The notes: a model not told the origin generated them from the sequence alone. A DNA stretch of 64,000 bases from Alphaproteobacteria bacterium (GCA_965248835.1 CBDFLJ010000001.1:1728001-1792000), one strand, 5' to 3'; numbered from the stretch's first letter, positions 19,305-58,404 are shown. Numbers and translations are program-made.

Positions 19305-19518
19305 GGATAGCATCTCGATGCGCCTGATTATTGATGTCAAGATGTCTCTGATTGGCAGAGGCTTCGTCTGCCCTCACGGTTTGCCGCCCGACGACAGCCT
19401 CCCCGCACACCGGAGATCCGCCCCGCCGCACTTGGCTGCGATTTCCGCATGGCATAACCTGCTTTGCCGATCCTGATCGTCGGTGCCGCGGCGGACGGCA
19501 AGCTGCAGGGAGACCGAT

Positions 19519-21084: not shown

Positions 21085-21111
21085 AGGGAGCCGGAGACCG
21101 GGCGGCATCGG

Positions 21112-22563: not shown

Positions 22564-22625
22564 GCTTGCCCGGGGCCGGCTCTTCGCCCACCATCTGCGC
22601 GACACCGAACGGGGCTTGCGGCAAC

Positions 22626-23918: not shown

Positions 23919-24393
23919 CCCGCAGGCCGGCGCGCCCTATGTCGAGCTGCTGGCGCTCTATGCCGACTACGCGCTGGCCCTGGAGGAGCGCCGTTTCGAG
24001 GATTGGCCGGGCTATTTCACCCGGACCTGCGTGTATGAGGTCCAGTCGCGCGAGAACCGCGAGCTCGACCTGCCCGGCGCGCTGATCATGTGCGACACGC
24101 GCGCCATGATCGAAGACCGCATCACCGTCCTGCGCGACACGCTGACCTACCCCTACCTGCACATCCGGCATCTGGTCGCCAACCTGCGCGTGCTCGAAGC
24201 CGGAGACGGATCCTGGCGGACCAGCGCGAGCTACCTGGTGCTGCATTCGACCGAGGAAGGCGAGACCCGGATCTATTCCACCGGCAAGTACGAGGACGAG
24301 ATCGTCCGCGAGGACGGTGCGCTCCGGTTCCGCAAGAAGATCGTGATCGCCGATACGTTTGCGATCGACAATTTGCTGGCAGTGCCGCTGTAG
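23905..24393 (+). CDS. Ring-hydroxylating oxygenase small (beta) subunit
   Basis: Overlaps the large subunit; WPGYF, SREN, DRI, GKYED motifs, ends LLAVPL. Confidence 0.85.
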   Translation: MACDDPQAGAPYVELLALYADYALALEERRFEDWPGYFTRTCVYEVQSRENRELDLPGALIMCDTRAMIEDRITVLRDTLTYPYLHIRHLVANLRVLEAGDGSWRTSASYLVLHSTEEGETRIYSTGKYEDEIVREDGALRFRKKIVIADTFAIDNLLAVPL

Positions 24394-24420
24394 GCCCCGA
24401 TGTCGGAGTCAGAACACGCG

Positions 24421-25389
24421 ATGACCAAGGCGCTGGTGGTTCACGAATATGGCGGGCCGGAGGTGCTGCGGCTCGAAGACGTCGATGTCGGCGCGCCCGG
24501 GCCGGGCGAGATCCGCATGCGTCATACCGCGATCGGGCTCAACCTGTCCGATACCTACCGCCGGCGCGGCGTCTATCCGCTGGCGTTGCCGGTGATCGTC
24601 GGCTCCGAAGGCGCCGGCGTAGTCACCGCGCTCGGCCCGGATGTCGACGGGCTCGCCCTTGGCGAGCGCATCGCCTATGCCGGTCCGCTCGGCGCCTATG
24701 CCGCCGAGCGCCTGATCGCCGCCGACAAAATCGTCCGCCTGCCCGAGGCGATCGATGACCGCACGGCCGCGGCGATGATGCTCAAGGGCCTGACCGTCCA
24801 CTACCTGCTGCACTGGACCTATCCGGTCCAGCGCGGCGACACCGTGCTCGTCCACGCCGCTGCGGGCGGCGTCGGGCTGATTTTCTGCCAATGGGCGAAA
24901 CACCTGGGCGCGACCGTCATCGGCACCGTCGGCTCGTCCGCCAAGGCCGCGATCGCCGCCGCGCACGGCTGCGATCATCCGATCGTCTATACTGAGCGGA
25001 GTTTTCGCGAGGCGACGATGGAAATCACCGGCGGCGAGGGCGTGCATGCGGTCTACGATTCGATCGGCGCGGACACGTTCGCGGACTCCATCGCCTGCGC
25101 CCGGCCGCGCGGGGTGATCGCGGGCTTCGGCCAGGCCTCGGGTCCGTTCCCGCCCCTCGATACCGGGCTGTTGGCGCGCGGCTCGAAGTTCGTCACCCGG
25201 CCCGGGCTCGCCGATCACATCGCCACGCGGGAGATGATCGAGACCGGCGCCGGCCGGCTGTTCGACCTCGTCGGCGCCGGCGTGGTGCGGATCAACGTCA
25301 ATCAGGTCTATCCGCTTGAACAGGCCGCCCAGGCGCACGCCGACCTCGAAGGCCGCAAGACCACGGGCTCGACGGTGCTCATCCCCTGA
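24421..25389 (+). CDS. NADPH:quinone oxidoreductase (MDR family)
   Basis: GGPEVL, GSEGAG, LVHAAAGGVG, FGQASG, KTTGSTVL. Confidence 0.9.
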   Translation: MTKALVVHEYGGPEVLRLEDVDVGAPGPGEIRMRHTAIGLNLSDTYRRRGVYPLALPVIVGSEGAGVVTALGPDVDGLALGERIAYAGPLGAYAAERLIAADKIVRLPEAIDDRTAAAMMLKGLTVHYLLHWTYPVQRGDTVLVHAAAGGVGLIFCQWAKHLGATVIGTVGSSAKAAIAAAHGCDHPIVYTERSFREATMEITGGEGVHAVYDSIGADTFADSIACARPRGVIAGFGQASGPFPPLDTGLLARGSKFVTRPGLADHIATREMIETGAGRLFDLVGAGVVRINVNQVYPLEQAAQAHADLEGRKTTGSTVLIP

Positions 25390-25422
25390 GCGGGCCATGC
25401 TGGAGACGAAACGGAGCAGTCG

Positions 25423-26832
25423 ATGAACAAGGACCTCAGAACGTTCCTCGCCGAGGCCCGCCAGATGGGGCCGGATTATTTCGCCTCCGTCAGCCGCGAG
25501 GTCGACCCGATCTACGAGCCTTGCGTGATCCAGCAGAAGCTCGCCGCGCGCGACGAATGGCCGGTCATCCGGTTCGACAACGTCGCAGGCTCCGACATGG
25601 CGCTGGTCACCAACCTGTTCGGCAAATACGAGCTCCTGGGCCTCGCGCTCGGGGTCGATCCCGACCGGCCGAAATCGGCGATCCTCGACCGGTTTCGCGA
25701 GCGCATCGCAAAGCCGTTGCCGACCAAGCAGGTCGCGCGCGCGGACGCGCCGGTCAAGCAGGTCGTGCTCGGCAGGGACGAGGTCGACCTCGGCGCCTTC
25801 CCGGTGCTCAAGCACGCCGAGGGCAACTCGGGCAAATACATCGCCATCGGCTGCCTGGTGGTGAAGGACCCCGAGACCGGCGTGCTCAATGCCGGGGTCT
25901 ACCGCCACGAGATCCAGGGCAAGGCCGAGCTCGCCTGCATGTTCAACCCGGCCCATCATGCCGGCTACATCTATCGGAAGTACCGCGAGGCGGGCAAGCC
26001 GATGCAGGCCGTGCTGTTCATCGGCCATCATCCGGCCGGCGTCCTGGGCGTCCTGTCCAAGCAGTCCTTCCATAGCGACGAGTACGAGATGATGGGCGCG
26101 CTGATGGGCGAGCCGCTCGAAGTCGTCGACGGCGAGACCGTCGACATCCCGGTGCCGGCCTGGGCGGAGATCGCCATCGAGGGCTATCTCGATCCCGCCA
26201 AGGAGACCAGCGACGGCCCGTTCTCGGAATACACCGGCTTCTACGGCCCGGCCAAGGACCCGGTCGGGCTGATGCAGGTCACCGCCATCACGATGCGCAA
26301 GGACGCGATCTTCCACGACCTCGACCCCTCGCACCGCGAGCACAACCTAGCCGGCGCGCTGGCTTTCGAAACCGCGCTTTATACGGCGGTTTCCAAGCTC
26401 GTCCCCTCGGTCACCGGCGTTCACATGCCGCCGTCGGGCAATTGCACCTTCACGGCCTATGTGAAGATCAAGAAGCGGGTCCCCGGCGAGGGCAAGTCCG
26501 CCGGGCTCGCCGCGCTTGCCGGCGATGCCAACGTCAAGATCGCGGTCGTGGTCGATGACGAGATCGACATCTACAACGACTCCGACGTCCTGTGGGCGAT
26601 CTCGACCCACGTCCAGGCCGACCGCGACGTCACCATCATCCCCTACGCCATGGGCGCGCATCTCGACCCGTCGGCCTACGGCGAGGTGCGCACCGACAAG
26701 GGCCCGATGCAGACCAAGATGATCATCGATGCGACCAGGCCGGCGACGCTCGACTTTGCCGAACGCATCGTCCCGCCCAAGGAGGCATGGGCGCGCATCC
26801 GGTTGGAGGACTATGTCGACGGGCTGAGCTGA
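25423..26832 (+). CDS. UbiD family (de)carboxylase
   Basis: NAGVYR, VPAWAEIAIEG, DGPFSEYTGFY, VVDDEIDIY, IIDATRP. Confidence 0.9.
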   Translation: MNKDLRTFLAEARQMGPDYFASVSREVDPIYEPCVIQQKLAARDEWPVIRFDNVAGSDMALVTNLFGKYELLGLALGVDPDRPKSAILDRFRERIAKPLPTKQVARADAPVKQVVLGRDEVDLGAFPVLKHAEGNSGKYIAIGCLVVKDPETGVLNAGVYRHEIQGKAELACMFNPAHHAGYIYRKYREAGKPMQAVLFIGHHPAGVLGVLSKQSFHSDEYEMMGALMGEPLEVVDGETVDIPVPAWAEIAIEGYLDPAKETSDGPFSEYTGFYGPAKDPVGLMQVTAITMRKDAIFHDLDPSHREHNLAGALAFETALYTAVSKLVPSVTGVHMPPSGNCTFTAYVKIKKRVPGEGKSAGLAALAGDANVKIAVVVDDEIDIYNDSDVLWAISTHVQADRDVTIIPYAMGAHLDPSAYGEVRTDKGPMQTKMIIDATRPATLDFAERIVPPKEAWARIRLEDYVDGLS

Positions 26833-26854
26833 GCCGGTGCGGCCCCGCGCCGGA

Positions 26855-27913
26855 TCAGTCGCAGGCCAGCGCGTAGACCCCTTCGACACCGGGCGGGAGC
26901 GGCCGCTGGAACCAGGTCTCGCCGCCGTCCTCGGTGCCGAACACCTGACCGCGCCGGGCGCCGCAATAGATGCGTTCCGGGTTGCTGCGGCTTTCGGCGA
27001 GGACCATCAAGGTGCTGTTGATCGGCTGATGGTCGTCGAAGCGCTGCCAGGTTCGGCCGAAATCGCGGCTGCGGTAGAGGCTGCCTTGGGTGCTGTCCGC
27101 AGACACGCTGAGTGCCGCGTAGAGGCACTCCGGGTCGTGCTGCGAGGCCTTGACGTCGCGCGCGTAGGTCAGCGGCGAGAACCGGCCGATCCCGATCTCG
27201 GTCCAGGTTGCGCCCTTGTCCGGGCTGCGGAACAGGCCCATCCGGTTGGCGAGCAGCACCGTGCTCGGATGGGCGCCGCTGATGGCGATCGCATGGGTGT
27301 CCATCATGCCCTCGTTGGGATCCGCGGTGACCAGCGGGCTCTGCAGCCCGGCGTGCCGGGCGAGCGCCAGGAGGTCGGTGCTGATATCCGACCAGGTCTC
27401 GCCGCCGTCGAGGCTGCGGACCACGCCGGAGACCTCGAGCCCGGCATAGATCTCATCGGGGGCACCGGGGTCGATGACGATGCGCACCACCCGGACCGGG
27501 AACGGCATCGCGATCCCGCCGCCGGGCACCGGCACGGCGAGCTCCTGCCAGGACGCGCCGCCATCGCGGGTGCGGAAGATCGAAAACCCCTCGACACCGA
27601 CGAAGATCGTTTGCGGATCGTTCGGGTGAAGGCAGATCGACCACACGACCCGGTTCGGCCCCGGCAAGCCCAGCGAGCGCCAGGTCCGCCCGGCATCCTC
27701 GCTCCGGTAGGGGCCGGCCTGCGTCCCGGCATAGACGATGTCCGGGTCGTCGGCGCGGATGGCGATACTGCGGACTTCGACATCCGCCGGCAGGCCGCCG
27801 TCCAGCGCTTGCCACGCGCCGTCGCCGGCCGACAGGCGGAAGAAGCCGTGCGTGCGTGCGCCTTCCGACGCCCCCGGCCAAGCCCCGATTCCTGCATAGA
27901 CGGTTCCCGTCAT
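26855..27913 (-). CDS. BNR/Asp-box repeat beta-propeller protein
   Basis: Repeated S.DgG.TW motifs (SEDAGRTW, TRDGGASW, SLDGGETW, SPDKGATW, SRDFGRTW, TEDGGETW). Confidence 0.82.
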   Translation of the reverse strand: MTGTVYAGIGAWPGASEGARTHGFFRLSAGDGAWQALDGGLPADVEVRSIAIRADDPDIVYAGTQAGPYRSEDAGRTWRSLGLPGPNRVVWSICLHPNDPQTIFVGVEGFSIFRTRDGGASWQELAVPVPGGGIAMPFPVRVVRIVIDPGAPDEIYAGLEVSGVVRSLDGGETWSDISTDLLALARHAGLQSPLVTADPNEGMMDTHAIAISGAHPSTVLLANRMGLFRSPDKGATWTEIGIGRFSPLTYARDVKASQHDPECLYAALSVSADSTQGSLYRSRDFGRTWQRFDDHQPINSTLMVLAESRSNPERIYCGARRGQVFGTEDGGETWFQRPLPPGVEGVYALACD

Positions 27914-27994
27914 GGCGCGCTCCCGGTTGTCGGATCTCGGCGATTGTAGGACGGTGCGGGCAATCGCGACAGCGGTGCTTTTGCTCACCCGACG

Positions 27995-28023
27995 TTGACA
28001 CCTTATCCGCACCCTGAGAGCAT
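27995..28023 (+). promoter_or_regulatory. Putative sigma70 promoter for the VOC gene
   Basis: TTGACA (27995-28000), 17-bp spacer, weak -10 GAGCAT; AGGAG RBS before ATG 28056. Confidence 0.35.
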
Positions 28024-28055
28024 CGCCGGAACTTCCGCATGCCAAGGAGCAGGCA

Positions 28056-28487
28056 ATGGCCAAGCTGCGTCACATCGCGCTGTCGGTCTCGGACCTCGAG
28101 GCCGCCAGGAAATTCTTCGAGGACGCCTTCGACATGGAGATGGTCGGAAAGGCCGCCACCGGCGTTTACATGTCCGACGGCACGATCAACATCGCGCTGC
28201 TCGCGCGTGAGGGCCGGCCGCTGGGCTACGAGGGCGAGGAGCCGTTCTACGGCATCGACCATTTCGGCATCTGGGTCGATGACATCGACGAGGCCTGCCG
28301 GAAGGTCGAGGCCGCCGGCGCGCACCATGTCATGGGCGAGCCGACCAACAATCCCAACACGTTCTACGAGGTCAAGTACCGCGACCCGCTGGGCCAGCTC
28401 TTCGATTTGACCGAGAACGGCTGGAAGGGCGCGGTCAAGGAAGTCGTCCCGGCGGCCGCCCGGGACAAGGCCGAGGCCGCCGAGTAG
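28056..28487 (+). CDS. VOC/glyoxalase family protein
   Basis: KLRHIAL, GIDHFGIWVDD, KYRDPLG. Confidence 0.85.
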   Translation: MAKLRHIALSVSDLEAARKFFEDAFDMEMVGKAATGVYMSDGTINIALLAREGRPLGYEGEEPFYGIDHFGIWVDDIDEACRKVEAAGAHHVMGEPTNNPNTFYEVKYRDPLGQLFDLTENGWKGAVKEVVPAAARDKAEAAE

Positions 28488-28495
28488 GCCGGGCG

Positions 28496-29746
28496 ATGTC
28501 CGAGCCCGCCCGCCCGCGCTACGACCTCGTCATCGCCGGCGATGACGTGATCGATCCCGCGCGGGGCTATCGCGGTCCCGCCGAGATCGCGATTTCCGAA
28601 GGACGCATCGCCCGGATTGCGCCGCGCCTGCCGCCGCACGAGACCAAACGGCGGATCGATGCCGGCGGCAAGCTCGTCTGCCCCGGTCTGATCGACCTCC
28701 ATGTCCATGTTTACGAATGGGTGACCAATTTCGGCCTCCACCCCGACGAGGCGGGCGTCCATTCCGGCGCCACCACCATCGTCGATCAGGGCAGCGCGGG
28801 TGCCTGGACCGTCGGCGGCTTCAAGGCCTATATCGCCGATCCGGCGATCACCGACGTCAGGAGCTTCGTTTCGGCCAATCTCGCCGGCGCGCTGATGGGC
28901 GGGATGGAAGGCACGGTCCTGCACAACCCCGGCATCATGCGGATCGCGGAGATCGTCCGCGTGGCGTCGGAATTTCCGGATCTGGTCAAGGGCATAAAGA
29001 GCCACGGCGAATCCGGCGGGTTGTCCCATTGGGGGCTGGAGGTGCTCGAGATGGCGGTCGAGGCCGGACGCGCGGCGGGCTTGCCGCTCTACGTCCATAC
29101 CGGAGAGCTGTTCCCGGTCGATGAGGCCGCCCGCCCGGCGCCCGAAACCGTGCTGCAGCAGGTGGTGCCGGTGCTGGCGCCGGGCACCACGCTCGCCCAT
29201 GTCTATTCGACCATGCCCGACGGGATCACCGGCGGCGCCGATCCGATCCCCGCGATCGTCTTCGAGGCGCTGGAGCGCGGGATCCATTTCGACATCGGCC
29301 ACGGCGTCAATTTCAGCTTCGCGATCGCGCGCCGCATGATGGAAGCGGGCGTGCTTCCCAACACCATCTCCTCGGACGTCCATTCGGACTTCAACGCCTA
29401 TCACGACGATTCCAAGCTGCGCTACAGCCTGTGCGGCGCGATGACCAAGCTCGCCGCGCTGGGCATGAAGCTCGAAGACGTGATCGCGCGCACGACGCTG
29501 CATCCGGCCCGCATATTGGGCGAGGAAGACGAGATCGGCACGCTGGCCGCGGGATCGCGCGCGGACATTACCGTGCTCGACCGGGCACGGGGCCGTTGGA
29601 CGCTGAGCGATTCGACCGGCGAGGAGATCACGGTCGAGGAGCGTCTGGTGCCCGATCTGGTGATCCGCGAGGGAATGGCGATCACGCCGAACCGGCGGCT
29701 CCTGCGCGACATCTGCCATCCCGAGGCCGCGGCCGCGGCGGAATAG
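28496..29746 (+). CDS. Amidohydrolase/deacetylase (dihydroorotase-like) family
   Basis: PGLIDLHVH, DQGSAG, KGIKSH, FDIGHG, ISSDVH. Confidence 0.82.
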   Translation: MSEPARPRYDLVIAGDDVIDPARGYRGPAEIAISEGRIARIAPRLPPHETKRRIDAGGKLVCPGLIDLHVHVYEWVTNFGLHPDEAGVHSGATTIVDQGSAGAWTVGGFKAYIADPAITDVRSFVSANLAGALMGGMEGTVLHNPGIMRIAEIVRVASEFPDLVKGIKSHGESGGLSHWGLEVLEMAVEAGRAAGLPLYVHTGELFPVDEAARPAPETVLQQVVPVLAPGTTLAHVYSTMPDGITGGADPIPAIVFEALERGIHFDIGHGVNFSFAIARRMMEAGVLPNTISSDVHSDFNAYHDDSKLRYSLCGAMTKLAALGMKLEDVIARTTLHPARILGEEDEIGTLAAGSRADITVLDRARGRWTLSDSTGEEITVEERLVPDLVIREGMAITPNRRLLRDICHPEAAAAAE

Positions 29747-29788
29747 GCGCCGCGGCGCGGATCCAGGACATATCGGAGGAGCCAGCGT

Positions 29789-30658
29789 TTGTTCGACCCC
29801 GACAAGATGATCGCAATCGACATCCATACCCATGCCGAAGAGCCGTGCGGGACCCATCTCGATGACGGCTACGAGGAATTCCAGGCCGGGATGTCGGCCT
29901 ATTTCAAGATGGACTTCACCCATCCGCCGACCATTCCCGAGACCGCCGCCTATTTCCGCGAGCGCAAGATCGGTGCCGTCATCTTTCCGGTCGATTCCGA
30001 GCGCGAGACGGGGTTCCGCCGCTACAGCAACGATGAGGTGGCCGCGCTCGCCGCCGAGCATGACGATGTGCTGATCCCGTTCGCCAGCATCGACCCCGCC
30101 AAGGGGAAGACCGGCGCGCGAGAGGCGCGCCGCCTGGTCGAGCATTGCGGCATCCGCGGCTTCAAGTTCCATCCGACGATGCAGGGCTTCTATCCCAACG
30201 ACCGCAGCGCCTACGTCCTCTACGAGGCGATCGCCGAAGCCGGCGTCCCGGCGCTGTTCCATACCGGGCAGACCGGGGTCGGTTCGGGCATGCGCGGCGG
30301 CAACGGCATGCGCCTGAAATACTCCAACCCGCTCTATCTCGACGACGTGGCGGTCGATTTCCCCGACATGCCGATCATCCTCGCCCACCCCTCCTTCCCG
30401 TGGCAGGAAGAGGCGCTGTCGGTGGCGACCCACAAGCCCAACGTCTATATCGACCTGTCCGGCTGGTCGCCGAAATATTTCCCGCCGATCCTGGTCCGGT
30501 ACGCCAATTCGCTGTTGAAGGAAAAGGTGCTGTTCGGATCGGACTGGCCGGTGATCACGCCCGACCGCTGGCTGAATGATTTCGACAAGCTCGACATCAA
30601 GCCCGAGGTCCGGCCGCTGATCCTGAAGGAAAACGCCCGCCGCTTGCTGGGGATTTGA
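29789..30658 (+). CDS. Amidohydrolase_2 family protein, resembling 4-hydroxyphenyl-beta-ketoacyl-CoA hydrolase
   Basis: IDIHTHAE, GFKFHP, FHTGQTG, AHPSFPW, DLSGWSPKYF, LFGSDWP; TTG start with GGAGGAG RBS. Confidence 0.78.
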   Translation: MFDPDKMIAIDIHTHAEEPCGTHLDDGYEEFQAGMSAYFKMDFTHPPTIPETAAYFRERKIGAVIFPVDSERETGFRRYSNDEVAALAAEHDDVLIPFASIDPAKGKTGAREARRLVEHCGIRGFKFHPTMQGFYPNDRSAYVLYEAIAEAGVPALFHTGQTGVGSGMRGGNGMRLKYSNPLYLDDVAVDFPDMPIILAHPSFPWQEEALSVATHKPNVYIDLSGWSPKYFPPILVRYANSLLKEKVLFGSDWPVITPDRWLNDFDKLDIKPEVRPLILKENARRLLGI

Positions 30659-39622: not shown

Positions 39623-39651
39623 CGACGGCTCTCCTTTTGCAGCGGCCGGGC

Positions 39652-39681
39652 ATTATAATTCGCCCTGCGGGGCGAGCGCAA
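39652..39681. promoter_or_regulatory. Divergent promoter region with palindromic ATTATAAT -10 and TCGCCC-TGCG-GGGCGA inverted repeat
   Basis: TATAAT readable on both strands; minus-strand TTGCGC 18 bp upstream; inverted repeat at 39660-39675. Confidence 0.4.
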
Positions 39682-39693
39682 AAGGAGGTGACG

Positions 39694-40134
39694 ATGTCCA
39701 TGAACGTCCGCCGGGTGGTCACCGGCCACGATGAAGCGGGGAAACCGGTGGTGATCATCGACGACATCGCGCGGAACGGCGCCTCGCGCCGGCGCGGCCA
39801 CGACTCCCGCGTCGTCTGGGTGACCGAGCCCGCGCGCCCGCCCAATTCGGGCAGCGAGGACGCCGGCGCGCTGCCGGTCGGCCGCCCGCCGCCGCCGGGC
39901 GGGACCATCTTCCGGGTGATGGAGCTCCAGCCCGACCAGGAATTGGAGATGCACACGACCCGGACCATCGACTACGTCGTGGTCATCGAGGGCGAGCTCA
40001 ACCTGGTGCTCGAGGACTCCGAGGTGCCGCTACGCCCGGGCGATTGTCTGGTCCAGCGCGGCACCAGCCACGCTTGGCGCAACACCGGCGCCGGCCCATG
40101 CCGCCTCGCCGCCGTCCTGATCGACGCGTCTTAG
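39694..40134 (+). CDS. Cupin domain protein
   Basis: RRVVTGHD, MHTTRTIDY, VQRGTSHAWRN. Confidence 0.85.
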   Translation: MSMNVRRVVTGHDEAGKPVVIIDDIARNGASRRRGHDSRVVWVTEPARPPNSGSEDAGALPVGRPPPPGGTIFRVMELQPDQELEMHTTRTIDYVVVIEGELNLVLEDSEVPLRPGDCLVQRGTSHAWRNTGAGPCRLAAVLIDAS

Positions 40135-40162
40135 ACGGGGATGCGCGATTGGCGCCGGGCGG

Positions 40163-41359
40163 TCACAGGCGCGGGTCGAGCGAGGGCAGCCCGAAGCGGA
40201 TGCGCCCGGCGTTGACCGACTGGATGTCCCAGGCCTGAGTGATCTGCATCGAGACCGCGTGCACGTCGCGCCAGGCGCGCATGAAGGGGCTGGTCTGGTC
40301 GAGCCCGCGCGCGCCCAGCAGCGGGTAAAGCCGCTCGACCGCGCGGACGCAGAGCTGGGTGGCATAGGCGTTGTTGCGCCGCCACCTGGCGCGTACCGGC
40401 AGCTCCGGGTGCTCGTCGGCCTCGGCGTAGCGCATCGATTCCTCGCCGCACTGGATCAGCAGCGCACCGGCGGCATCGATCTCCGAGGCGGCTTCCGCAA
40501 CCCGGATCTGCGCCGTCGGAAGCTCGGCCAGCTTGGCGCCGGTCACACCGGTGCGCTCGGCGAACAGGGTCTCGACATATTCGAGCGCGCCGCGGGCAAT
40601 GCCCAGCGCGGGCCCGGAAAAGATCTGCGTTCCCGTCGACCAGATCGAAATCCGGAACAGCGGCGAAGCGTTGCGTTCCGGGCTGAGCGAGCGGCCGCCG
40701 GACAGGTTGGCGGACGGCAGGGTCCGGTAGTCGGGAACGAACACCTCCTTCAGCAGGACCGATTTGCTGCCGGTGGCCAGCAGCCCGGTCGCGTTCCAGT
40801 CATCGACTACCGCGCATTCGCCGCGCGGGACCAGCACGAACCGGTGCTCCGGCGGACCGCTTTCGCGCGGCAGGAAGATCTGAAGGTTGAGCCAGTCGCA
40901 GTAGTCGACGCCGCTGGAGAAGCTCCACAGCCCGTCCAGCACCACGCCGCCGTCGACCTGTCTGGCGCCGCCGCCGGCCACGGCGAAACCCGAGGCCATC
41001 AGCGCCTCGGGGTTGTCGCCCCAGACATCGTCCTGGGCCTGCTCGTAGCCGCAGCCCAGCACCAGCGACTGGGCGGCGAGGTTGGTGAAGACCCAGGTGC
41101 TCGACCCGCAGCCGCGGCCGAGCTCGGCCGACAGATCGACCATGATGCGGTAGTCGCATTCCAGCCCGCCGAAATGGGCGGGCTGGAAGATGCGGTAGAA
41201 GCCCGCCTCGACGAACTCCCGATGGGTGATCTCGGGGATCACCCGGTTCGCTTCGGCCTCGTCGGCGCGCGCGCGCAGATCCGGGACCATGGCGGCCGCG
41301 CGCGCGATCAGCCCTTGATGCATCGCCTGGCGTTCGGCGCCGGCTGCGGCCCCTTCCAT
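40163..41359 (-). CDS. Flavin-dependent monooxygenase oxygenase subunit (HsaA/acyl-CoA dehydrogenase-like)
   Basis: AGFYRIFQPAHFGG, GLWSFSSG, DDWNATGLLATGS, RAWRDVHA. Confidence 0.85.
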   Translation of the reverse strand: MEGAAAGAERQAMHQGLIARAAAMVPDLRARADEAEANRVIPEITHREFVEAGFYRIFQPAHFGGLECDYRIMVDLSAELGRGCGSSTWVFTNLAAQSLVLGCGYEQAQDDVWGDNPEALMASGFAVAGGGARQVDGGVVLDGLWSFSSGVDYCDWLNLQIFLPRESGPPEHRFVLVPRGECAVVDDWNATGLLATGSKSVLLKEVFVPDYRTLPSANLSGGRSLSPERNASPLFRISIWSTGTQIFSGPALGIARGALEYVETLFAERTGVTGAKLAELPTAQIRVAEAASEIDAAGALLIQCGEESMRYAEADEHPELPVRARWRRNNAYATQLCVRAVERLYPLLGARGLDQTSPFMRAWRDVHAVSMQITQAWDIQSVNAGRIRFGLPSLDPRL

Positions 41360-41360
41360 G

Positions 41361-42998
41361 TCAGTCCTCCTCGCGCTCGACGTCGCGCACCGAGGTTTCG
41401 GGCACCAGCCCGGGCTGCTGGCGTTGCAGCGTGCGCCTGCCGTTCTCCAGATAATGCCCGTCGGCGGCGCGCTTCGCCGCCTGGTCCCAGTCCTCGGTCC
41501 AGTCGCCCAACGTATAGCCGTGCCAGGGCGATTCCGGCTTGAGGCCGGGCAGGCCCAGCCGCTCCCACAGGGCGCGCGCGCCTTCCATGTAGGCGCGCGC
41601 CGGCAAGGCCAGCGGCGGCATGCCGGATTTCATGGTCGCATCGATCAGCAGCGTAGAGTCCTCCTCGCCCGCGTGCTCGCGCTTGGGCCCGTGGCCCTGA
41701 CCGCGATGGGGAAGGATCGCGACGTCATCGGTCGGGTTATGGCGGTAGGCCATCGCCCAGAGCAGCGCATCGGCGTTGTCGGGATCGATGTCGTCATTGA
41801 CCGCGATGCAGATCTTGGAGCAGTCGCCCTTGAAGCTCGCCGTCCCGTAGAGCGCCCGCCAGACCTCGGTGCGCGGTGCGCCGCGCTCCAGCGTTACGAT
41901 GCTCACCCGCAACAGCCCGGTCAGCTTCTCGTGGAGCGCGACACCGGTGACCGCCTTCACCCCGAGCTGGTCGCGCAGGTGGGCGAGGAACAGCGGCTCG
42001 TAGGCGACGCGCTTGATCACCGAGGATTCGCTCGGTGCGACCTGGCTGATATAGGACGGGATCACCGGGTGCGCCTTGCGGGTGATCGCGCTCACCCGCA
42101 TCGGCAGGTTGTACTCCTCCAGCGCCACATGGCCGTGGCTCTCGCCGAACGGACCCTCCGGCTCCAGCATGGTGGTATCGATCATCCCCTCGATCACCAT
42201 CTCGGCCTCGGCCGGTACCAGCAGGTCGACGGTCTTGGCGCGCACGACGTTGATCGGCTCGCCGGCCAGCCCGCCGGCGATGTCGAACTCGTCGACATCG
42301 ACCTGCAGCTTCTGCGGACCCATGAACGCCACCAGCGGCGGGCAGCCAAGCACGATCGCGCACGGCAGGCCCTCGCCGCGCGCCTTGCATTTCTGCCAAT
42401 GGACGTAGCCGCCGGCCCCGCCCACCCGGGTCGCCATACGCACCACCAGCCGATCGGGCGCCTTCAGCCCGGCGCGGTAGGTGCCCATGTTCTGCACCCC
42501 CGTCTCCGGGTCCTTGGTGATGACGTTGGTGGCCGCAAGGGTCGGCGCGCTGTCGAAGCCGGGCGTCGAGATCGGGATCGGCAGGGCATCCAACCCGTTG
42601 CCCGGACCCCGCAGGGCCTCGCCCTCGATGACGACCTCCTGGCACGGCCCCTCGTTGACCAGCCGCGGCGGCACCGGGTTCGCCATCGCGTGGTCCCAGC
42701 GCGCCGGGATGTCGGCGACCTCGGCGCGCATGCCCTGGCTGTAGATGGCTTTGTTGGCCGCGAGCGCGCCGATCACCACCGGGATGTCGTAACGCCGGTC
42801 CAGGCTGTCGGTGACGGTGTTGAACAGGAAGGCCTTGCGCTCGCGCTCCTCCAGCCCGCCGCGGAACTGCCAGCGGACCAGCGGGTGCATCTCGGTGTCC
42901 TTGTTGACCGGCTCGTCGATCCGCAGCAGCAGCCCGGCCGCATCCAGCACCTCCAGATGCTCCTGCAGGTCGGCATAGCCGCGCCGCGCATGCACCAT
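41361..42998 (-). CDS. UbiD family (de)carboxylase
   Basis: PIPISTPGFD, NMGTYR, VPAEAEMVIEG, EGPFGESHG, VNDDIDP, LIDATMK; start MVHARRG. Confidence 0.9.
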   Translation of the reverse strand: MVHARRGYADLQEHLEVLDAAGLLLRIDEPVNKDTEMHPLVRWQFRGGLEERERKAFLFNTVTDSLDRRYDIPVVIGALAANKAIYSQGMRAEVADIPARWDHAMANPVPPRLVNEGPCQEVVIEGEALRGPGNGLDALPIPISTPGFDSAPTLAATNVITKDPETGVQNMGTYRAGLKAPDRLVVRMATRVGGAGGYVHWQKCKARGEGLPCAIVLGCPPLVAFMGPQKLQVDVDEFDIAGGLAGEPINVVRAKTVDLLVPAEAEMVIEGMIDTTMLEPEGPFGESHGHVALEEYNLPMRVSAITRKAHPVIPSYISQVAPSESSVIKRVAYEPLFLAHLRDQLGVKAVTGVALHEKLTGLLRVSIVTLERGAPRTEVWRALYGTASFKGDCSKICIAVNDDIDPDNADALLWAMAYRHNPTDDVAILPHRGQGHGPKREHAGEEDSTLLIDATMKSGMPPLALPARAYMEGARALWERLGLPGLKPESPWHGYTLGDWTEDWDQAAKRAADGHYLENGRRTLQRQQPGLVPETSVRDVEREED

Positions 42999-43167
42999 CC
43001 CCGCCACTCCCCGAAGAACGCTCAACCCGGATTTGCCGCCATGATGCCATAGCCGGCCCGGCGGGAAACAGCCTTCTCTGGCGCGGCCCGGTGTGGCACT
43101 GTCATGCTCGGCATGTTCGGGCCGGTCCAGCGTGCTCGGCACATGCCCGGTCAGGCGGAGGGGTTGG

Positions 43168-44151
43168 ATGGGCAAGCCCGACATTACCGACGCGCAGCGG
43201 CCGGCGCGTACACGGGTCGGCGGCGTCGACGTCAAGCGCACCGCGCAGTTCCGCGCGCGCTTCCCGCCCGCGGCCAAGCGCCACCTGTTCATCCGCGACC
43301 ATGTGCTGTTCGAACAGCGCGACACGCCGGTCAATCCCGACCGGACCGAGGACATCGACGCGGACGCGACTGCGCGCTGGATCAAGGACTGGGTGCTGGA
43401 GGCCGGCGCCGATGCCGTCGGCATCGCAGCCTATGACGAGCGCTTCACCTTCGCCCAGGCCGACCAGCCCGGCCACACCGCGGTGATCGTCTACGCGATG
43501 GCGATGAAATACGACTACATGGCCGATATCGGCCCGCGGTCCCAGGACGAGGTCCACCGGATCTACTACCGACTCGACGATCTCGGTGTCCGGCTCGCCC
43601 ACCAGATCGGCGGGTTCGGCTACCGCGCGCGGATGCAGGCCAACGGCGGCGATATCCCGCTGGTGCCGTTCGCCTGGCTCGCCGGGCTGGGCGAGCTCGG
43701 CAAGCACGGCTCGCTGATCTCGACCGAGCTGGGCTCGTCCTTCCGACTGGGGGCGGTGACCACCGACCTGCCGCTGACCCCCGACGGGCCGCGCGATTCG
43801 GGGATCGACGAGGTCTGCGCCTCGTGCAACATCTGCACCCGGTTCTGCCCGGGCGATGCGATCAAGCCCGACAAGCAGACCGTCGCCGGTGTCGAGCGCT
43901 GGATCGTCGACCGGCCGGCTTGCGAGCCGTGGTTCCACAAGCTCTATGGCTGCAAGATCTGCCTGATGGTCTGTCCGTTCAACGCCAAGAGCATCTTCGC
44001 CGACAGCTTCAAGCCGACCGCGCGCGACATCCGCGACGCCAAGGACGCGAACGGCCTGCTGGCGCTGATCGAATCGCGCACCGAGATGCACTACGACGCG
44101 TTCGATTACGGCGCCTCGGGCGCACCCGCGATCGCGCCCGACGAGGACTGA
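43168..44151 (+). CDS. Reductive dehalogenase-like (RdhA/QueG superfamily) protein with two 4Fe-4S motifs
   Basis: GADAVGIA, AGLGELGKHGSLI...GSSFRLGAVTTDLPLTPD, CASCNICTRFCPGDAI, AC-x9-CKICLMVCPFN; GGAGG RBS. Confidence 0.75.
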   Translation: MGKPDITDAQRPARTRVGGVDVKRTAQFRARFPPAAKRHLFIRDHVLFEQRDTPVNPDRTEDIDADATARWIKDWVLEAGADAVGIAAYDERFTFAQADQPGHTAVIVYAMAMKYDYMADIGPRSQDEVHRIYYRLDDLGVRLAHQIGGFGYRARMQANGGDIPLVPFAWLAGLGELGKHGSLISTELGSSFRLGAVTTDLPLTPDGPRDSGIDEVCASCNICTRFCPGDAIKPDKQTVAGVERWIVDRPACEPWFHKLYGCKICLMVCPFNAKSIFADSFKPTARDIRDAKDANGLLALIESRTEMHYDAFDYGASGAPAIAPDED

Positions 44152-44165
44152 GACGGCGCGCCGGG

Positions 44166-44188
44166 CGGACCGGACGTCGCCGGTCCGG
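44166..44188 (+). terminator. GC-rich hairpin between the RdhA-like and deiodinase-like genes
   Basis: CGGACCGG-loop-CCGGTCCG inverted repeat with no U tract; TTGACA at 44198 follows. Confidence 0.35.
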
Positions 44189-44263
44189 GCAGGCGGTTTG
44201 ACAGGCTCCGGCCGAAATGGTCGGTTCCGGTCATCGCATGGATATCAACGAGGATCGAGGCTG

Positions 44264-44953
44264 ATGGCCGAACCGGGACTCTCCGTCGAGCAGAGAGCCA
44301 TGAAGGGCGCGCAGATGACGCCCGAGGAACGCAAGCGGATGTGGTTGTCGATTTCCGACATCACCGAGGCCGAGTTCGACGCCTACCATGACTGGCGCCG
44401 GGAACGTCAGTCGCGGGTGCCGCAGCCCGGCAGTCCGGCGCCGGATTTCGAGCTCGAAGGGCTCGGCGCCGACGGCGCGCGCACCGGCCGGCGGGTGCGG
44501 CTGTCGGCGCTCAAGGGCACGCCGGTGGCGCTGGTCTTCGGGTCCTATACCTGACCCCCCTATCGTAGTTGGGCCGTGCGCCTGAACGAGATCTATGACC
44601 GCCACAAGGACCGGGACATCCGGTTCTACGCCGTCTATATCCGCGAGGCCCATCCCAGCAATGGCTGGCAGGTGCCGGAAAACCTGGAGGAGAACATCCT
44701 CTACGAGGCGCCCACCACCGATGCGGCGCGCACCGAGATCGCCGCCGCCTGCCGGGTGGCGATGGACATCCAGATGCCGATGCTGATCGACTGGATCGGC
44801 AACGACGTGGAGGAGAAATACGTCTCCACCCCGATCCGGCTGTTCGTCGTCGATCCCGACGGGCGCATCGCCTATACCGGCGATGCCGGACCGTTCGGCT
44901 TCGATCCGGACTCCTGGGAGGAGGCGATCAAGGCCCAGATCGCCGCCGCCTGA
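44264..44953 (+). CDS. Iodothyronine deiodinase-like (thioredoxin-fold) selenoprotein; TGA 44552-44554 read as selenocysteine
   Basis: One continuous frame across the TGA: APDFEL...PVALVFGSYT-U-PPYR...VYIREAHPSNGW...P.RLFVVD..GRIAY.G..GPFGF; matches the DIO active site FGSCTUPPF and the YI.EAH.SDGW motif. Confidence 0.85.
44564..44588 (+). promoter_or_regulatory. Putative bacterial SECIS hairpin
   Basis: CGT(AG)TTGGGC-CGTGC-GCCTGAACG folds by hand into a 9-bp stem (two G-U pairs) starting 10 nt after UGA, with a G in the apical loop about 22 nt downstream. Confidence 0.6.
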
Positions 44954-45165
44954 GACGCGGCCGCGGCCCGCTCGGCACCGCCGTGCCGGCCGGGGGGGTG
45001 GGGAGTCCGGGTGGTTTTATCGTTCCGATGCGGCGCGGGCTGTGTCTGCGTGCTGACGGCACGCACCGGTCCCGGAATGCGCCTTGCGGCGGCGCGCTTG
45101 ACCGCGTTGCCCGCTTCGGCAATAGACTTGCACGCGAGCGACCTGGAGAGCGAGCCATCGAGACG

Positions 45166-46353
45166 GTGAAGCGGGCGCTTCGGCTCATTGCCGCGGCGGC
45201 GATATTCCTGCCGGTGATGACGGGCGGGTATTCGGCGGCGGCGCAAACCTTCGACGAAGTCCTCGCGGCATACGACCGCGGCGACTACGCTACGGCCTAC
45301 CGCGGATTCCGAAGCCTTGCGGAGCAGGGCATTGCCACCGGTCAGTTCGGTCTCGGGTTCCTGTACGCCAACGGCAAGGGCGTCCCCCGGGATGATGCTT
45401 TGGCCCTGAGGTGGTACCGCCGCGCCGCCGCGCAGGGCCATGCCGCCGCTCAGTTCAATCTCGGGCTCATGTACTATAACGGCGAGGGCGTCCCCCGGGA
45501 TTATGCCGAGGCGGCGAGGTGGTACCGCCGCGCCGCCGCGCAGGGCCGTGCCGCCGCGCAGTTCAATCTCGGGTTCATGTACGGCAACGGCAAGGGCGTC
45601 CCCCGGGACTATGCCGAGGCGGCGAGGTGGTACCGTCGCGCCGCCGAGCAGGGCCATGCCCACGCTCAGTTCAATCTCGGGCTCATGTACTATAACGGCG
45701 AGGGTGTCCCTCGGGACGAAGCCGAGGCGGCGACGTGGTACCGCCGCGCCGCCGCGCAGGGCCGTGCCGCCGCGCAGTTAAATCTCGGGTTCCTGTACTA
45801 CAAGGGCGAGGGCGTCGCCCAGGACTACGCCTTGGCGGTGACATGGTACCGCCGCGCCGCAGAGCAAGGCGATGCCCGCGCTCAGTTCGGTCTTGCACTC
45901 ATGTACGAACTCGGCCGAGGTGTTCCCCGGGACTTCGTTGAGGCGCACAGGTGGTTCAACCTTGCCGCCGCCCGATCCTCGGCCTCGCAGAAGGCCTTGC
46001 GTAAACGGGCCGTGCAACGCCGCGACCACGTTGCGGCGCGTCTGACGGCGGCGGCGCTCGAGCGGGCCCGGCGGCTGGCGAGAACCTGGCGGCCCGGGAC
46101 GGAGACGGCTCTGCCGACACCGCCGGCGGCAGGCAAGGACGGCGGTATGCGTAGCCGGGTGGCCATGCTGCAACGCGCTCTCGCGCGGCTCGGCTACGAC
46201 GCCGGGTCCGCCGACGGGGTCCTCGACTCCAAGACCCGTGCTGCGATCCGGGCATTCCAGGCATCGGCCGGGCTGCCGGCGGACGGCCGCCTGTCCGAAC
46301 GGCTGGAGAGCGCGGTCATATCCGCCCTTCTCGCCGCCGGCGCCGCGCCATAA
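45166..46353 (+). CDS. Secreted Sel1-like repeat protein with C-terminal peptidoglycan-binding domain
   Basis: Signal peptide, six Sel1 repeats (AQFNLG.MY.NG.GV..D..EA..WYRRAA.QG), LQRALARLGY...DGVL..KTRAAIRAFQ...GLPADG. Confidence 0.88.
   Translation: MKRALRLIAAAAIFLPVMTGGYSAAAQTFDEVLAAYDRGDYATAYRGFRSLAEQGIATGQFGLGFLYANGKGVPRDDALALRWYRRAAAQGHAAAQFNLGLMYYNGEGVPRDYAEAARWYRRAAAQGRAAAQFNLGFMYGNGKGVPRDYAEAARWYRRAAEQGHAHAQFNLGLMYYNGEGVPRDEAEAATWYRRAAAQGRAAAQLNLGFLYYKGEGVAQDYALAVTWYRRAAEQGDARAQFGLALMYELGRGVPRDFVEAHRWFNLAAARSSASQKALRKRAVQRRDHVAARLTAAALERARRLARTWRPGTETALPTPPAAGKDGGMRSRVAMLQRALARLGYDAGSADGVLDSKTRAAIRAFQASAGLPADGRLSERLESAVISALLAAGAAP
45334..45975 (+). repeat. Six tandem 108-bp Sel1-coding repeats
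   Basis: Near-identical DNA units, e.g. GCTCAGTTCAATCTCGGGCTCATGTACTATAACGGCGAGGG in repeats 2 and 4. Confidence 0.85.
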
Positions 46354-55710: not shown

Positions 55711-55839
55711 CGATTTCGCGCCCGATGACGGTCGGCGGCCATCCTAGCACGGATGGGCAAAGCCGGCCGTATTGCCGGCCGCGCGGATTCGGGGCACGAT
55801 CGGCCGCCACACTCAGCCGCCATACTGTGGGAGGGACCG

Positions 55840-56859
55840 ATGTCGACAGCGCCAAGCGTGCGCGGGGGGGCCAACGATTTCCACGACGCGATCGAGGATG
55901 CGCATGTCGTCGCGCTGTGGGAGATGTTCCGCGGCGAGGGTGGTCCGGGGATCAAGCCCGAGCCGGCGTTTCATTGGCCGTGGCCGGTCATCGGGCCGTT
56001 GCTCGACCGGGCGGTGGCGGAAACCGACATGGACAATGCCGAACGCCGGGTGCTGTCGCTCGCCAACCCGGCCTATGGCCGCGAGGACGACTATCGCGCG
56101 ACGACCAATCTGAATGCCGGGCTGCAGATCCTGATGCCCGGCGAGAACGCGCGGCCCCACCGGCATTCCATGGATGCGCTGCGGTTCGTGATCGAAGGCG
56201 AGGGTGCGGCGACCACGGTCGACGGCAAGCGCTGCGAGATGGTGCGCGGCGACCTGATCCTGACGCCGGCCTGGACCTGGCACGAGCACGAACACAGGGG
56301 CGAGTCCCGTGTCGTCTGGCTCGACTCGCTCGACGTGCCGCTTGTCATGGGCATGGACGTGACGTTCTTCGAGCCCGGCCCGGCCGGCGATTTCCCGGAA
56401 CTGCCGGCGGACCCGGCGTTCGCCGCGGCGGGCCTGGTTCCCGCCGGGACGGTGACCACCGCCTACTCGCCGCTGTTCCGTTATCCCTGGGCGGAGGCGC
56501 GCGCGGCGCTGGCCGCCGCGCCGGCCGAAGACGACGGCTCGCGGCTGATGCGCTATGTCAACCCGGCGACCGGCGGTCCGGTCTTGTCGCGGCTGGACTG
56601 CTATCTGCTGGGGCTCGAGCGCGGCAAGCCGACCCGCCGCTACCGGACGACCAGCAACGCGGTCTGTTTCGTGGTCGAGGGCGAGGGCGAGAGCACGATC
56701 GGCGACGTCACGATCGGCTGGGGCGTCAACGACATCTTCACCCTGCCGCATTGGAGCTGGGCCTCGCATACGGCATCGAGCGAGACCGCGGCGATCTTCC
56801 AGTCGACCGACCGCGAGGTCATGAACCGGCTCGGGCTGCTGCGCGAAGAGCGGGACTAG
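55840..56859 (+). CDS. Gentisate 1,2-dioxygenase-like bicupin
   Basis: AERRVL.LANP, GLQILMPGE.ARPHRH, TPAWTWHEH, WLDSLDVP, YVNPATGG. Confidence 0.82.
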   Translation: MSTAPSVRGGANDFHDAIEDAHVVALWEMFRGEGGPGIKPEPAFHWPWPVIGPLLDRAVAETDMDNAERRVLSLANPAYGREDDYRATTNLNAGLQILMPGENARPHRHSMDALRFVIEGEGAATTVDGKRCEMVRGDLILTPAWTWHEHEHRGESRVVWLDSLDVPLVMGMDVTFFEPGPAGDFPELPADPAFAAAGLVPAGTVTTAYSPLFRYPWAEARAALAAAPAEDDGSRLMRYVNPATGGPVLSRLDCYLLGLERGKPTRRYRTTSNAVCFVVEGEGESTIGDVTIGWGVNDIFTLPHWSWASHTASSETAAIFQSTDREVMNRLGLLREERD

Positions 56860-56924
56860 CGCTTTTCCGGATCACGCCATGTCGCCGCGCCGGGCGCCGG
56901 TATCCATCGGCCTGTCCGCCCGGT

Positions 56925-57230
56925 TCAGTCCCCGCTGCCCGGGACCATGTCGCGGGCGTAGGCCCGGGCGGCCTCGCTGTCGTTGTGGTTGTAGACCCCG
57001 CCGTGAAAGAACCGGCTGACCTGCGGCAGGAAATAGGGGTGGACGCCGAGCCGGGCGAGGGTGCGGATGTCGATCGCCCGGAACGCCTCCTTCTCGGGCT
57101 CGGACAGGCCGTACGCCTCCATGACGCTTTCCATGTCCTGGCGAAAGCGCTGAAACAGCGCCATGTCGCGGCGGATCTCGAAGATCATCTTGTTCGCCGG
57201 CAGCGTCCGGTCGACATCGGCAATCGGCAT
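56925..57230 (-). CDS. LigA-like aromatic ring-opening dioxygenase alpha-subunit domain protein
   Basis: FQRFRQD...YGLSEPEKEAF...LARLGVHPY pattern; GGAGG RBS. Confidence 0.65.
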   Translation of the reverse strand: MPIADVDRTLPANKMIFEIRRDMALFQRFRQDMESVMEAYGLSEPEKEAFRAIDIRTLARLGVHPYFLPQVSRFFHGGVYNHNDSEAARAYARDMVPGSGD

Positions 57231-57281
57231 ATCGGCCTCCCGTCTGGCTCCCGCCCGCAGCGGGGCTGCTGAGGACTCCTC

Positions 57282-58247
57282 TCAAACCGACAATGCGTCA
57301 GGCGTTGCGTAGTTCAGGAAACTCTCGGGCAGCGCCGCGCCCCAGTATACGCCGGTGCCGCGGGCCGCCTCGTCCCAGACCACGGTCTCGAAATCGGGTG
57401 CGAAGATGAAGAAGCCGCTGGCATAGACCTCGACCCGGTTGCCGCCCGGCTCGTAGCTGTAGATGTAGAACGCCTGGGAGTTGTTGTGCTTGGACGGGCC
57501 GGCCTCGATGAACACGCCGTTCTCCATGAACAGGTCGGCCGCGCGCAGGACGTCGGCCCGGTCATCGACCCATAGCGAGAAGTGGTGCAGCCGGCCGTGC
57601 TGGCCGGTCGTATCCACGATATAGGCGATCTCGTGATGGGTCGCCGAGGACGACATCCACGAGCCGATCTCGCGCGTGCCGTTCTCGTAGACCACCTGCT
57701 CGCGCAGCTTCAGCCCGAGCACGTCGCGGGCGAACCGGCGGTTGGCGCCGACATCCTTGCACAGGACCGCCAGGTGGTCGGTCCTGCGCACCCCGACGCC
57801 GTGGCGCGGATAGCGCATCGGCAGGTTGTTCAGCGTCGAGCGCAGGCCCTCCGGCGCGATATAGCGCTGCTCGTCGTAATAGATCTCCATCGCGTGGCCG
57901 TCCGGGTCGCGGAAGCAATAGGCGGCGCCGTGGCCGAAATCGCCGTTCGACCAGCCGGTGCCGAGGCCGGCGCGCTCGATCGCCGCAACCCGGCGGTCCA
58001 GCGCCGCCCGGCTGACCGTCCGCCAGGCGATGTGCCCGACACCGGGCTTTGCGGCCTCGGTCAGCTTGAGCGTCGTTGCGGCATAGTCGCCATAGCCGCG
58101 CAGGTAGACCGATTGGCCCTCGCTGTGAACCGCCTCCATCCCCAGGATGTCCGCGAAATACCACAGGCTCTCCTGCGGCTTGGGGGTCAGCAGCTCGACA
58201 TGGCCGAGATGGGCGATGTCCTGGATCGGCTCTTGAGCTTCAGGCAT
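57282..58247 (-). CDS. Catechol 2,3-dioxygenase (type I extradiol)
   Basis: AHLGHVELLTP, RRTDHL, LHHFS, GPSKH, YEPGGNRVE. Confidence 0.87.
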   Translation of the reverse strand: MPEAQEPIQDIAHLGHVELLTPKPQESLWYFADILGMEAVHSEGQSVYLRGYGDYAATTLKLTEAAKPGVGHIAWRTVSRAALDRRVAAIERAGLGTGWSNGDFGHGAAYCFRDPDGHAMEIYYDEQRYIAPEGLRSTLNNLPMRYPRHGVGVRRTDHLAVLCKDVGANRRFARDVLGLKLREQVVYENGTREIGSWMSSSATHHEIAYIVDTTGQHGRLHHFSLWVDDRADVLRAADLFMENGVFIEAGPSKHNNSQAFYIYSYEPGGNRVEVYASGFFIFAPDFETVVWDEAARGTGVYWGAALPESFLNYATPDALSV

Positions 58248-58404
58248 GGTGGACGTTCCCCTCGAATCCCGTTGCCGCCGGACATCATGCCACGCAAGCC
58301 CGCGTTGATCGATGCCAATCCGCTGCACCGTGGCTCACCTGCCGCCGAGCGGCCGGCCGGCTTCGTTGGATCGGCCGCGTGGCTGCATGAATTGCGGGAT
58401 CGCC

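Follow-up and report, generated by a model that had tools for sequence, protein, structure and literature searches.

A probable deiodinase-like selenoprotein gene interrupted by an in-frame UGA in an alphaproteobacterial genome

Deiodinase-like selenoproteins have been described in bacteria before. According to the available text of the Sargasso Sea study (Zhang, Fomenko & Gladyshev 2005, Genome Biol 6:R37; PMC1088965), the family occurs there in selenocysteine (Sec) and Cys forms and carries a bacterial selenocysteine insertion sequence (SECIS), and the accessible part of PMC2398784 counts 22 Sec sequences and 21 Cys homologs of the family in the GOS data. The family also appears in two reviews (PMC9312934 and PMC13188914), the accessible portions of which both describe its functions as largely unknown and give its motif as UxxC; where a function is named in the accessible text of these sources, it is given as “possibly redox”. 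Here we analyze a stretch of 64,000 nucleotides from an Alphaproteobacteria bacterium (GCA_965248835.1, CBDFLJ010000001.1:1728001-1792000; hereafter the window) and consider it very probable that positions 44264-44953 form one gene, whose product is a thioredoxin-fold selenoprotein of the bacterial deiodinase-like family, soluble and probably located in the cytoplasm. The evidence consists of a single reading frame, the family and fold of its product, a conserved TGA, a conserved hairpin with constraint at the RNA level, and linkage to selA, selB and tRNA-Sec in some relatives. A sequence-only reading of this DNA had presented the gene as a hidden novelty; given the 2005 description, it is a re-annotation that adds a member to a known family and not a new kind of system. 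The gene and its proposed Sec codon are as follows.

44264..44953, plus strand: deiodinase-like selenoprotein gene (predicted); ATG at 44264, 229 codons, stop TGA at 44951-44953
44552..44554, plus strand: in-frame UGA at codon 97, the proposed selenocysteine codon, within FGSYT-U-PPY

The list of open reading frames (ORFs) for the window divides this locus into two plus-strand pieces, 44198..44554 and 44576..44953, which share one frame. When TGA is translated as U, 44264-44953 becomes a single open frame of 229 codons plus the terminal TGA, bearing out the proposal that the two listed ORFs are one. The motifs FGSYTUPPY, YIREAHPSNGW and MTPEERKRMWLSISDITEAEFDAY are all found in this translation, which confirms that the TGA at 44552-44554 is codon 97 of 229 in FGSYT-U-PPY and that YIREAHPSNGW lies downstream of it. 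A different explanation is that the locus encodes two small proteins, an N-terminal one of 96 amino acids and a C-terminal one of 125 amino acids beginning at GTG 44576, the reading adopted by ORF finders and public annotation. However, the seven codons between the TGA and this GTG (PPYRSWA) are conserved in frame, full-length Cys homologs exist in one piece, and in the structural model described below the two halves form one thioredoxin-fold domain with a beta-sheet running across the break. We regard two separate products as extremely improbable.

To describe the conservation of the TGA we use related loci from a scan of one genome per species (185,579 species), which gave 596 pattern matches, 594 of them confirmed by tblastn. 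Locus counts throughout refer to the best 80 of these 594 (protein identity 40-84%), and individual loci are cited by L-number. TGA occupies the Sec column in all 80 loci, the motif there is U-P-P-[FY] in every one, and the loci span Alpha-, Beta- and Gammaproteobacteria, Myxococcota, Dehalococcoidia, Acidobacteriota, Gaiella and Binatus; it weighs against this count that the best 80 of at least 594 are biased to close relatives. Relative to the closest locus, L001 (84% protein identity over residues 1-228 and 87% nucleotide identity), Ka/Ks is 0.086/0.383 (0.22) for codons 1-96 and 0.088/0.342 (0.26) for codons 98-228, and in this comparison the halves on either side of the TGA are under equal purifying selection. 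These results bear directly on the idea that the TGA is a nonsense mutation or a sequencing error in a former Cys gene, leaving a pseudogene. That idea would accord with the existence of Cys forms of the family and with a window that contains no Sec machinery, but it has to contend with the TGA that all 80 loci, from several phyla, carry at this column, with Ka/Ks of about 0.22-0.26 either side of the TGA, and with an intact hairpin that shows RNA-level constraint (below). We give a pseudogene a negligible chance.

Protein databases show how such genes are usually annotated. A database search returned 60 matches, 36 of which are fragments of 126-132 amino acids covering only the C-terminal ~55%, and in the 30 of these 36 that were aligned, the first residue is that of RLNEIY or lies a few positions ahead of it, just past the TGA. 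Therefore the homologous genes are broken at the same place, as expected of a gene caller that stops at TGA. The prediction that standard callers would fragment the gene held, both in the window (44198-44554 and 44576-44953) and among the database relatives, where C-terminal fragments dominate. The ten full-length database homologs have C (six), W (three) or S (one) at the Sec column. A profile search of 1.84 billion cluster representatives gave 12,606 relatives with an E-value of at most 0.001, of which 3,654 remain at 1e-10; among the best 150 profile matches the motif regular expression matched 127, of which 105 have Cys and a handful W, S, A or R, the rest being mis-hits. The column is thus TGA or mostly Cys in relatives, and Trp or Arg, which in the sequence-only reading would have marked the TGA as a mutation or an error, is not the rule.

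The few Trp residues raise the question of whether Trp or some other standard residue is inserted at UGA, through an altered code or SECIS-independent read-through. W stands at this column in three full-length database homologs and in two of the best 150 profile matches. However, the W-bearing entries derive from metagenome contigs of short length, and TGA read under code 4 is their simplest explanation; the column is Cys in the great majority of homologs. The organism itself does not use code 4, because TGA is the ordinary stop of 28 of the 48 predicted genes in the window; genome G+C is 68%. Moreover, a scan of the window for sites of coding through TGA leaves 44552 alone, with coding signal on either side of it, the other three candidates being ordinary gene junctions. 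Decoding as a standard residue is, in our judgment, scarcely credible.

The second line of evidence for a selenoprotein is a hairpin within the coding sequence that follows closely on the UGA.

44569..44585, plus strand: conserved hairpin core; stem 44569-44574 paired with 44580-44585, loop CGUGC at 44575-44579
44563..44589, plus strand: outer hairpin extension; UCGU 44563-44566 paired with ACGA 44586-44589, AG bulge at 44567-44568

Counted from the UGA, the core stem begins at 14 nt and the loop at 20 nt; the conserved stem has 5-6 bp, with G-U pairs among them in the window, and the core folds at -5.5 kcal/mol. The sequence-only reading had drawn a 9-bp stem at 44564-44588 with a G in the apical loop, and this drawing is indeed the minimum free energy (MFE) fold of the segment (3 + 6 bp, 2-nt bulge, CGUGC loop, -6.0 kcal/mol) as well as of the 41 nt from the UGA (44552-44592, -8.7 kcal/mol). 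Its inner 6 bp are conserved in relatives and its outer 3 bp are not. The folding of the stretch after the TGA therefore agrees with the drawn structure but gives a stability no greater than that of shuffled sequences. For the 62 nt of 44549-44610 the z-score is +1.0, with 173 of 200 shuffles folding at least as well, and the corresponding counts are 58 of 200 shuffles of the 41-mer and 90 of 200 of the 25-mer. Rfam likewise gives no credible match, whether at the gathering score over the whole window or at E <= 10 over 44400-44800. These results speak against a functional element; because the single-sequence fold is not better than shuffles we dropped it as evidence, and the case that the hairpin is more than chance is made from comparative data only.

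In an ungapped 51-column DNA alignment of the window and the 80 loci, columns 21-26 pair with columns 32-37 (44569-44574 with 44580-44585). Standard pairs form in 89.9% of the cells of this core stem, compared to 24-51% for 3' partners displaced by 1-3 columns, and its covariation score of 0.438 (0.19 in shuffles) is reached by none of 500 shuffles. Pair 22-36 takes all six standard forms (AU 24, CG 15, GC 14, UG 7, GU 4, UA 4, unpaired 8); the first base of a variable codon (W/K/Q/G/H/R) occupies column 22, and the synonymous third base of a Leu codon occupies column 36. Lys AAG occurs with Leu CTT in 25 of 25 loci, where these genes use CTT for just 13% of their 193 other Leu codons; similarly, Gly GGG occurs with CTC or CTT (17/17) and His CAT with Met ATG (3/3). 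Within the hairpin, codons +7, +8 and +9 are frozen as Ala GCC (65/71), Val GTG (70/71) and Arg CGC (65/73), and Lys is always AAG (25/25), while the invariant residues flanking the hairpin (Gly-4, Ser-3, Thr-1, Pro+1, Pro+2 and Arg+4) use all their codons. The loop CGTGC is present in 69 of the 81 rows. Three points count against the comparative case. Outer pairs 16-40, 17-39 and 18-38 show no compensatory change, 18-38 being unpaired in 46 of 76 distinct rows; column 22 changes only ~6 times on a tree built without the hairpin codons; and tests by independent contrasts have no power, with 1-3 usable pairs on well-supported branches. Because column 22 changes so rarely, the argument for the hairpin amounts to a handful of compensated events together with strong stasis at synonymous sites.

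One divergent clade (L071, L073 and L075-L080) departs from this pattern. Its residues past the Sec position differ (AQAGHLE or REVPALN), and instead of the CGUGC hairpin it has a 7-bp stem closed by a 3-nt loop, shifted a few bases toward the TGA (~13-30 nt from it), which suggests that the SECIS was replaced in these loci and not lost.

The protein itself belongs with the deiodinases by both sequence and predicted fold, upholding the identity first read from its motifs. Residues 82-216 match Pfam T4_deiodinase (PF00837; 67.1 bits, E 1.9e-18, gathering cut-off 27), and match AhpC-TSA (41.7 bits) and Redoxin (27.3 bits) more weakly. Among solved structures the nearest in sequence are mouse Dio3 (4tr3, E 2.4e-14) and Dio2 (9h48, E 7.3e-11), and the U column aligns with the Sec-to-Cys position of both crystal constructs. 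An AlphaFold2 model built from a 39-sequence alignment (pLDDT 92.9, pTM 0.87) has a single domain with a beta-sheet that spans the TGA position, and Foldseek against the PDB places 9h48 (TM by target 0.80) and 4tr3 (0.74) on top at 24-27% sequence identity, followed by ResA/TlpA-type oxidoreductases and peroxiredoxins. In the model residue 97 sits at the N-terminus of helix 98-102 (alpha1), a 27-residue insertion (126-152) separates strand 120-125 from helix 153-167, and three helices of amphipathic length stand in place of an N-terminal membrane anchor. We found no hydrophobic or transmembrane segment (19-residue Kyte-Doolittle maximum 1.03 over the whole protein, -0.26 within the first ~60 residues), in agreement with the earlier description of the N-terminus as soluble and free of a membrane anchor.

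The top NCBIfam match is NF038285 (deiodinase_rel; E 5.7e-47), in which residues 53-222 cover profile positions 176-340 of 347, and a literature search found no paper that mentions this family. Weighing against membership, the score of 160.8 is under the curated cut-off of 250, and the N-terminal ~175 profile positions have no counterpart; the protein is consequently not a member of NF038285 by the NCBI criterion.

Next we compared active-site residues with those of the animal enzymes. The available text of PMC11592359 gives the Dio2 proton relay as Ser127, Thr129, Tyr157, Glu160, His162 and His182, and also names a distal Cys and, in Dio3, Arg275, Phe258 and Trp207. Five of the six relay residues are present and invariant in the alignments (S94, T96, Y125, E128 and H130), and W135 is conserved alongside them. 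Three other positions of the animal enzymes are not conserved, which counts against the reading: that of Dio2 His182 is Thr or Pro, in a loop where the alignment is uncertain by 2 residues, the Arg275 clamp of Dio3 aligns to the variable A208, and the distal Cys (Dio2 C205 / Dio3 C239) aligns to the variable M171. Dio3 Phe258 aligns to the invariant Pro190, which resembles the cis-Pro of classical thioredoxin-fold proteins. Cys163 is specific to this family, occurring in at least 90% of the 39 aligned sequences. Based on this residue alignment with Dio2 and Dio3, the selenolate chemistry and part of the hydrogen-bond network are kept, and the features that bind thyronine are not.

If UGA-97 is a Sec codon, the machinery to decode it should be encoded in such genomes, and in some relatives it lies next to the gene. 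Both selA and selB are within 10 kb in five of the 80 loci (L008, L033, L041, L044 and L046; tblastn), four of which also have tRNA-Sec in that range (L008, L041, L044 and L046); these four are 4 of the 10 tRNAs found in all 80 loci. The selA and selB products of L008 and L041 score above equivalog cut-offs. In L041 (10001-14160) the deiodinase-like gene, selA, selB and tRNA-Sec follow each other in this order on one strand, the order is the same in L044 (3-4122; tblastn and ARAGORN), and in L008 (6289-10630) selA-selB-tRNA-Sec is divergent from the deiodinase-like gene. Upstream of the L041 cluster we also observe an ORF resembling a YciW-related (seleno)protein and an HsaA-like monooxygenase.

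The window itself is silent in this respect, which counts against Sec decoding at this locus. It contains no tRNA of any kind, tRNA-Sec included, no SelA, SelB or SelD family match among its 53 ORFs, and no tblastn match along its 64 kb to SelA or SelB of L008. It is conceivable, then, that the gene is a selenoprotein gene by descent in an organism that has lost Sec decoding and makes only the truncated product. In addition to the missing selA, selB, SelD family match and tRNA-Sec, the gene neighbors differ from those of L001, which is compatible with a recent acquisition. But both halves of the gene and the hairpin are intact, divergence from L001 is mainly synonymous, and 75 of the 80 relatives likewise have no sel genes within 10 kb. 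Because 64 kb is less than 2% of a typical genome of this kind, missing sel genes in the window say little, and we consider a loss of decoding very unlikely.

We propose the following mechanism for the gene read as a selenoprotein. In the established bacterial pathway SelB binds a hairpin just 3' of the UGA. By extension from that pathway, UGA-97 would be read as Sec instead of stop, with the hairpin in the coding sequence (stem at +14 nt, CGUGC loop) recruiting SelB-GTP-Sec-tRNA(Sec) to the ribosome. Sec97 would then sit at the N-terminus of alpha1, flanked by a network of Ser94, Thr96, Tyr125, Glu128 and His130 that forms part of the animal deiodinase proton relay. Its selenolate may attack an electrophile, either a phenolic-ring halogen, as in a deiodinase, or a peroxide or disulfide, as in a peroxiredoxin- or TlpA-like enzyme, and the oxidized selenium may be re-reduced by a thiol, from Cys163 or from an external thioredoxin- or glutathione-type reductant. 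We infer both the actual insertion of Sec in this organism and the substrate, and the protein is a putative Sec-dependent reductase; it counts against any firmer assignment that our literature search found nothing on the activity of any bacterial member.

The gene neighborhood offers one lead on function. Directly upstream on the same strand, across a 112-nt gap, lies a gene related to reductive dehalogenases (RDH).

43093-44151, plus strand: gene for a short reductive-dehalogenase/QueG-family Fe-S protein; the true start is likely later, for example at a Met at ~43168

Its predicted product scores 108 bits against TIGR02486 (cut-off 160) and 77 bits against QueG (cut-off 200). The best solved relative is 4ras (E 1.5e-20), presumably NpRdhA, ahead of PceA and QueG, and at ~330 amino acids the protein is much shorter than the 4ras and PceA enzymes. 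The window is also rich in genes for aromatic catabolism (11546-30658, 39637-43424 and 55753-58328), including three UbiD-family decarboxylases, Rieske oxygenases and a VanA-like oxygenase, and further catabolic genes encode extradiol dioxygenase/glyoxalase-fold proteins, several amidohydrolases, LigA, an FAA hydrolase and an HsaA/HpaB-like monooxygenase. The RDH-like gene is itself surrounded by UbiD decarboxylases, Rieske oxygenases and extradiol dioxygenases. When the 12 window neighbors were searched by tblastn against the related loci, a short RDH-like gene was found within 10 kb in 4 of the 80; in L034, L042 and L046 it is ~2-4 kb from the deiodinase-like gene. In L066, a Rhodospirillaceae metagenome-assembled genome (MAG) with a 40% identical protein, positions 1120-10905 hold a same-strand array headed by the deiodinase-like gene (2096-2701) and continuing with a TRAP fused permease, a TAXI binding protein, an MBL-fold hydrolase, a short RDH-like gene (7394-8314; 124 bits), an ORF of unknown function and a class III extradiol dioxygenase, with an IclR/PcaR-type regulator divergent upstream. 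By gene content L066 is a second, independent context that combines deiodinase-like and RDH-like genes.

Working against any functional assignment from context, we find no conserved operon partner, either in the tblastn comparison of the 12 window neighbors or by clustering: when 595 neighbor ORFs within 5 kb on either side were clustered, the best real cluster, of SDR proteins, reached 9 of the 80 loci. The largest cluster (33 loci) was discarded as an artifact of ORF picking, its members being antisense ORFs over the deiodinase-like gene itself. The RDH-like neighborhood is recurrent but not conserved, and we treat it as a lead, not a result. On this basis it is possible, though in our view unlikely, that the deiodinase-like selenoproteins of bacteria act on halogenated phenolics, either as true reductive dehalogenases or as redox partners of such enzymes; were this true, the breakdown of halophenols or halobenzoates would include a step that depends on selenium.

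Other features of these neighborhoods are recorded here as separate observations. An alkyl-sulfatase-type MBL hydrolase lies 1-4 kb from the deiodinase-like gene in 8 of the 80 loci (L054, L055, L056, L059, L066, L068, L070 and L072), all in one subclade with the motif UPPFRDGAVRLD, and in the database protein P0050 a T4_deiodinase domain is combined with Alkyl_sulf_C (Pfam). In L058, a Dehalococcoidia MAG, three copies of the deiodinase-like selenoprotein gene lie within 6 kb (TGA at 9364, 10133 and 15143) in identical motif context and stem partly from an apparent ~5.8-kb segmental duplication. With regard to transcription, a scan of 43900-45200 found no sigma-70 promoter or intrinsic terminator. 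A 12-nt element, GGTTTGACAGGC, with a perfect -35-like TTGACA stands ~60 nt before the ATG (window 44195-44206; about 9931-9942 in L001) and is kept between the window and L001 amid diverged upstream DNA; the formal promoter scan gave no -10 matching this TTGACA.

The wider interest of this gene lies in its family. Because the gene is systematically mis-annotated, with 36 of 60 relatives represented by C-terminal halves, the selenoproteomes of Alphaproteobacteria and other phyla are under-counted, and the conserved TGA with its hairpin serves re-annotation as a clean marker. With 3,654 cluster representatives at E <= 1e-10 and at least 594 genomic copies, the family is large, and it has been without an assigned function since 2005. 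Given that the greater part of the catalytic network seen in the thyroid-hormone deiodinases is retained in it, knowing its substrate would reveal the purpose of the ancestral “deiodinase” chemistry, and the recurrent short RDH-like neighbors give one concrete functional hypothesis.

Compared to known systems, the closest match is the bacterial family of 2005. As far as the accessible text of PMC1088965 goes, the gene shares with it PF00837, an in-frame UGA paired with Cys homologs, a downstream hairpin with an apical G, and a soluble product. It is set apart by the motif that the accessible portions of the reviews list, UxxC, whereas the gene and its 80 relatives have U-P-P-[FY] and no Cys at +3; this appears to be a subfamily difference. 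In L004 we observe on the same contig a more distant deiodinase-like paralog (~14300-14900, plus strand, TGA at 14582; PF00837 27.5 bits) with a UxxC motif, FGSFTUPFC, in agreement with the family motif of the reviews.

The hairpin is a candidate SECIS and resembles that of the E. coli fdhF type in lying inside the ORF soon after the UGA and in its small apical loop, in which G and U occur, but its conserved stem is short (5-6 bp) and of modest stability. The loop range used by bSECISearch is reportedly 16-37 nt from the UGA, and the loop here is at 20 nt.

With vertebrate DIO1-3 (Dio3 in 4TR3, Dio2 in 9H48) the predicted protein shares the FGSxTUPP[FY] active site, the YI.EAHP..GW motif, five of the six relay residues, W135, a beta2-alpha2 insertion at the Dio-specific site and an N-terminal Prx-like beta module. 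Unlike them, it has no transmembrane anchor, its SECIS-like element is in the coding sequence and not in the 3'UTR, the His182, Arg275 clamp and distal Cys of the animal enzymes are not kept, and Cys163 is specific to the family described here. Finally, the ResA/TlpA oxidoreductases and AhpC/TSA peroxiredoxins have the same thioredoxin/Prx-like fold, but the protein differs from them in having neither CxxC nor the Prx motif PxxxTxxC, and it has instead the insertion and the motifs of a deiodinase.

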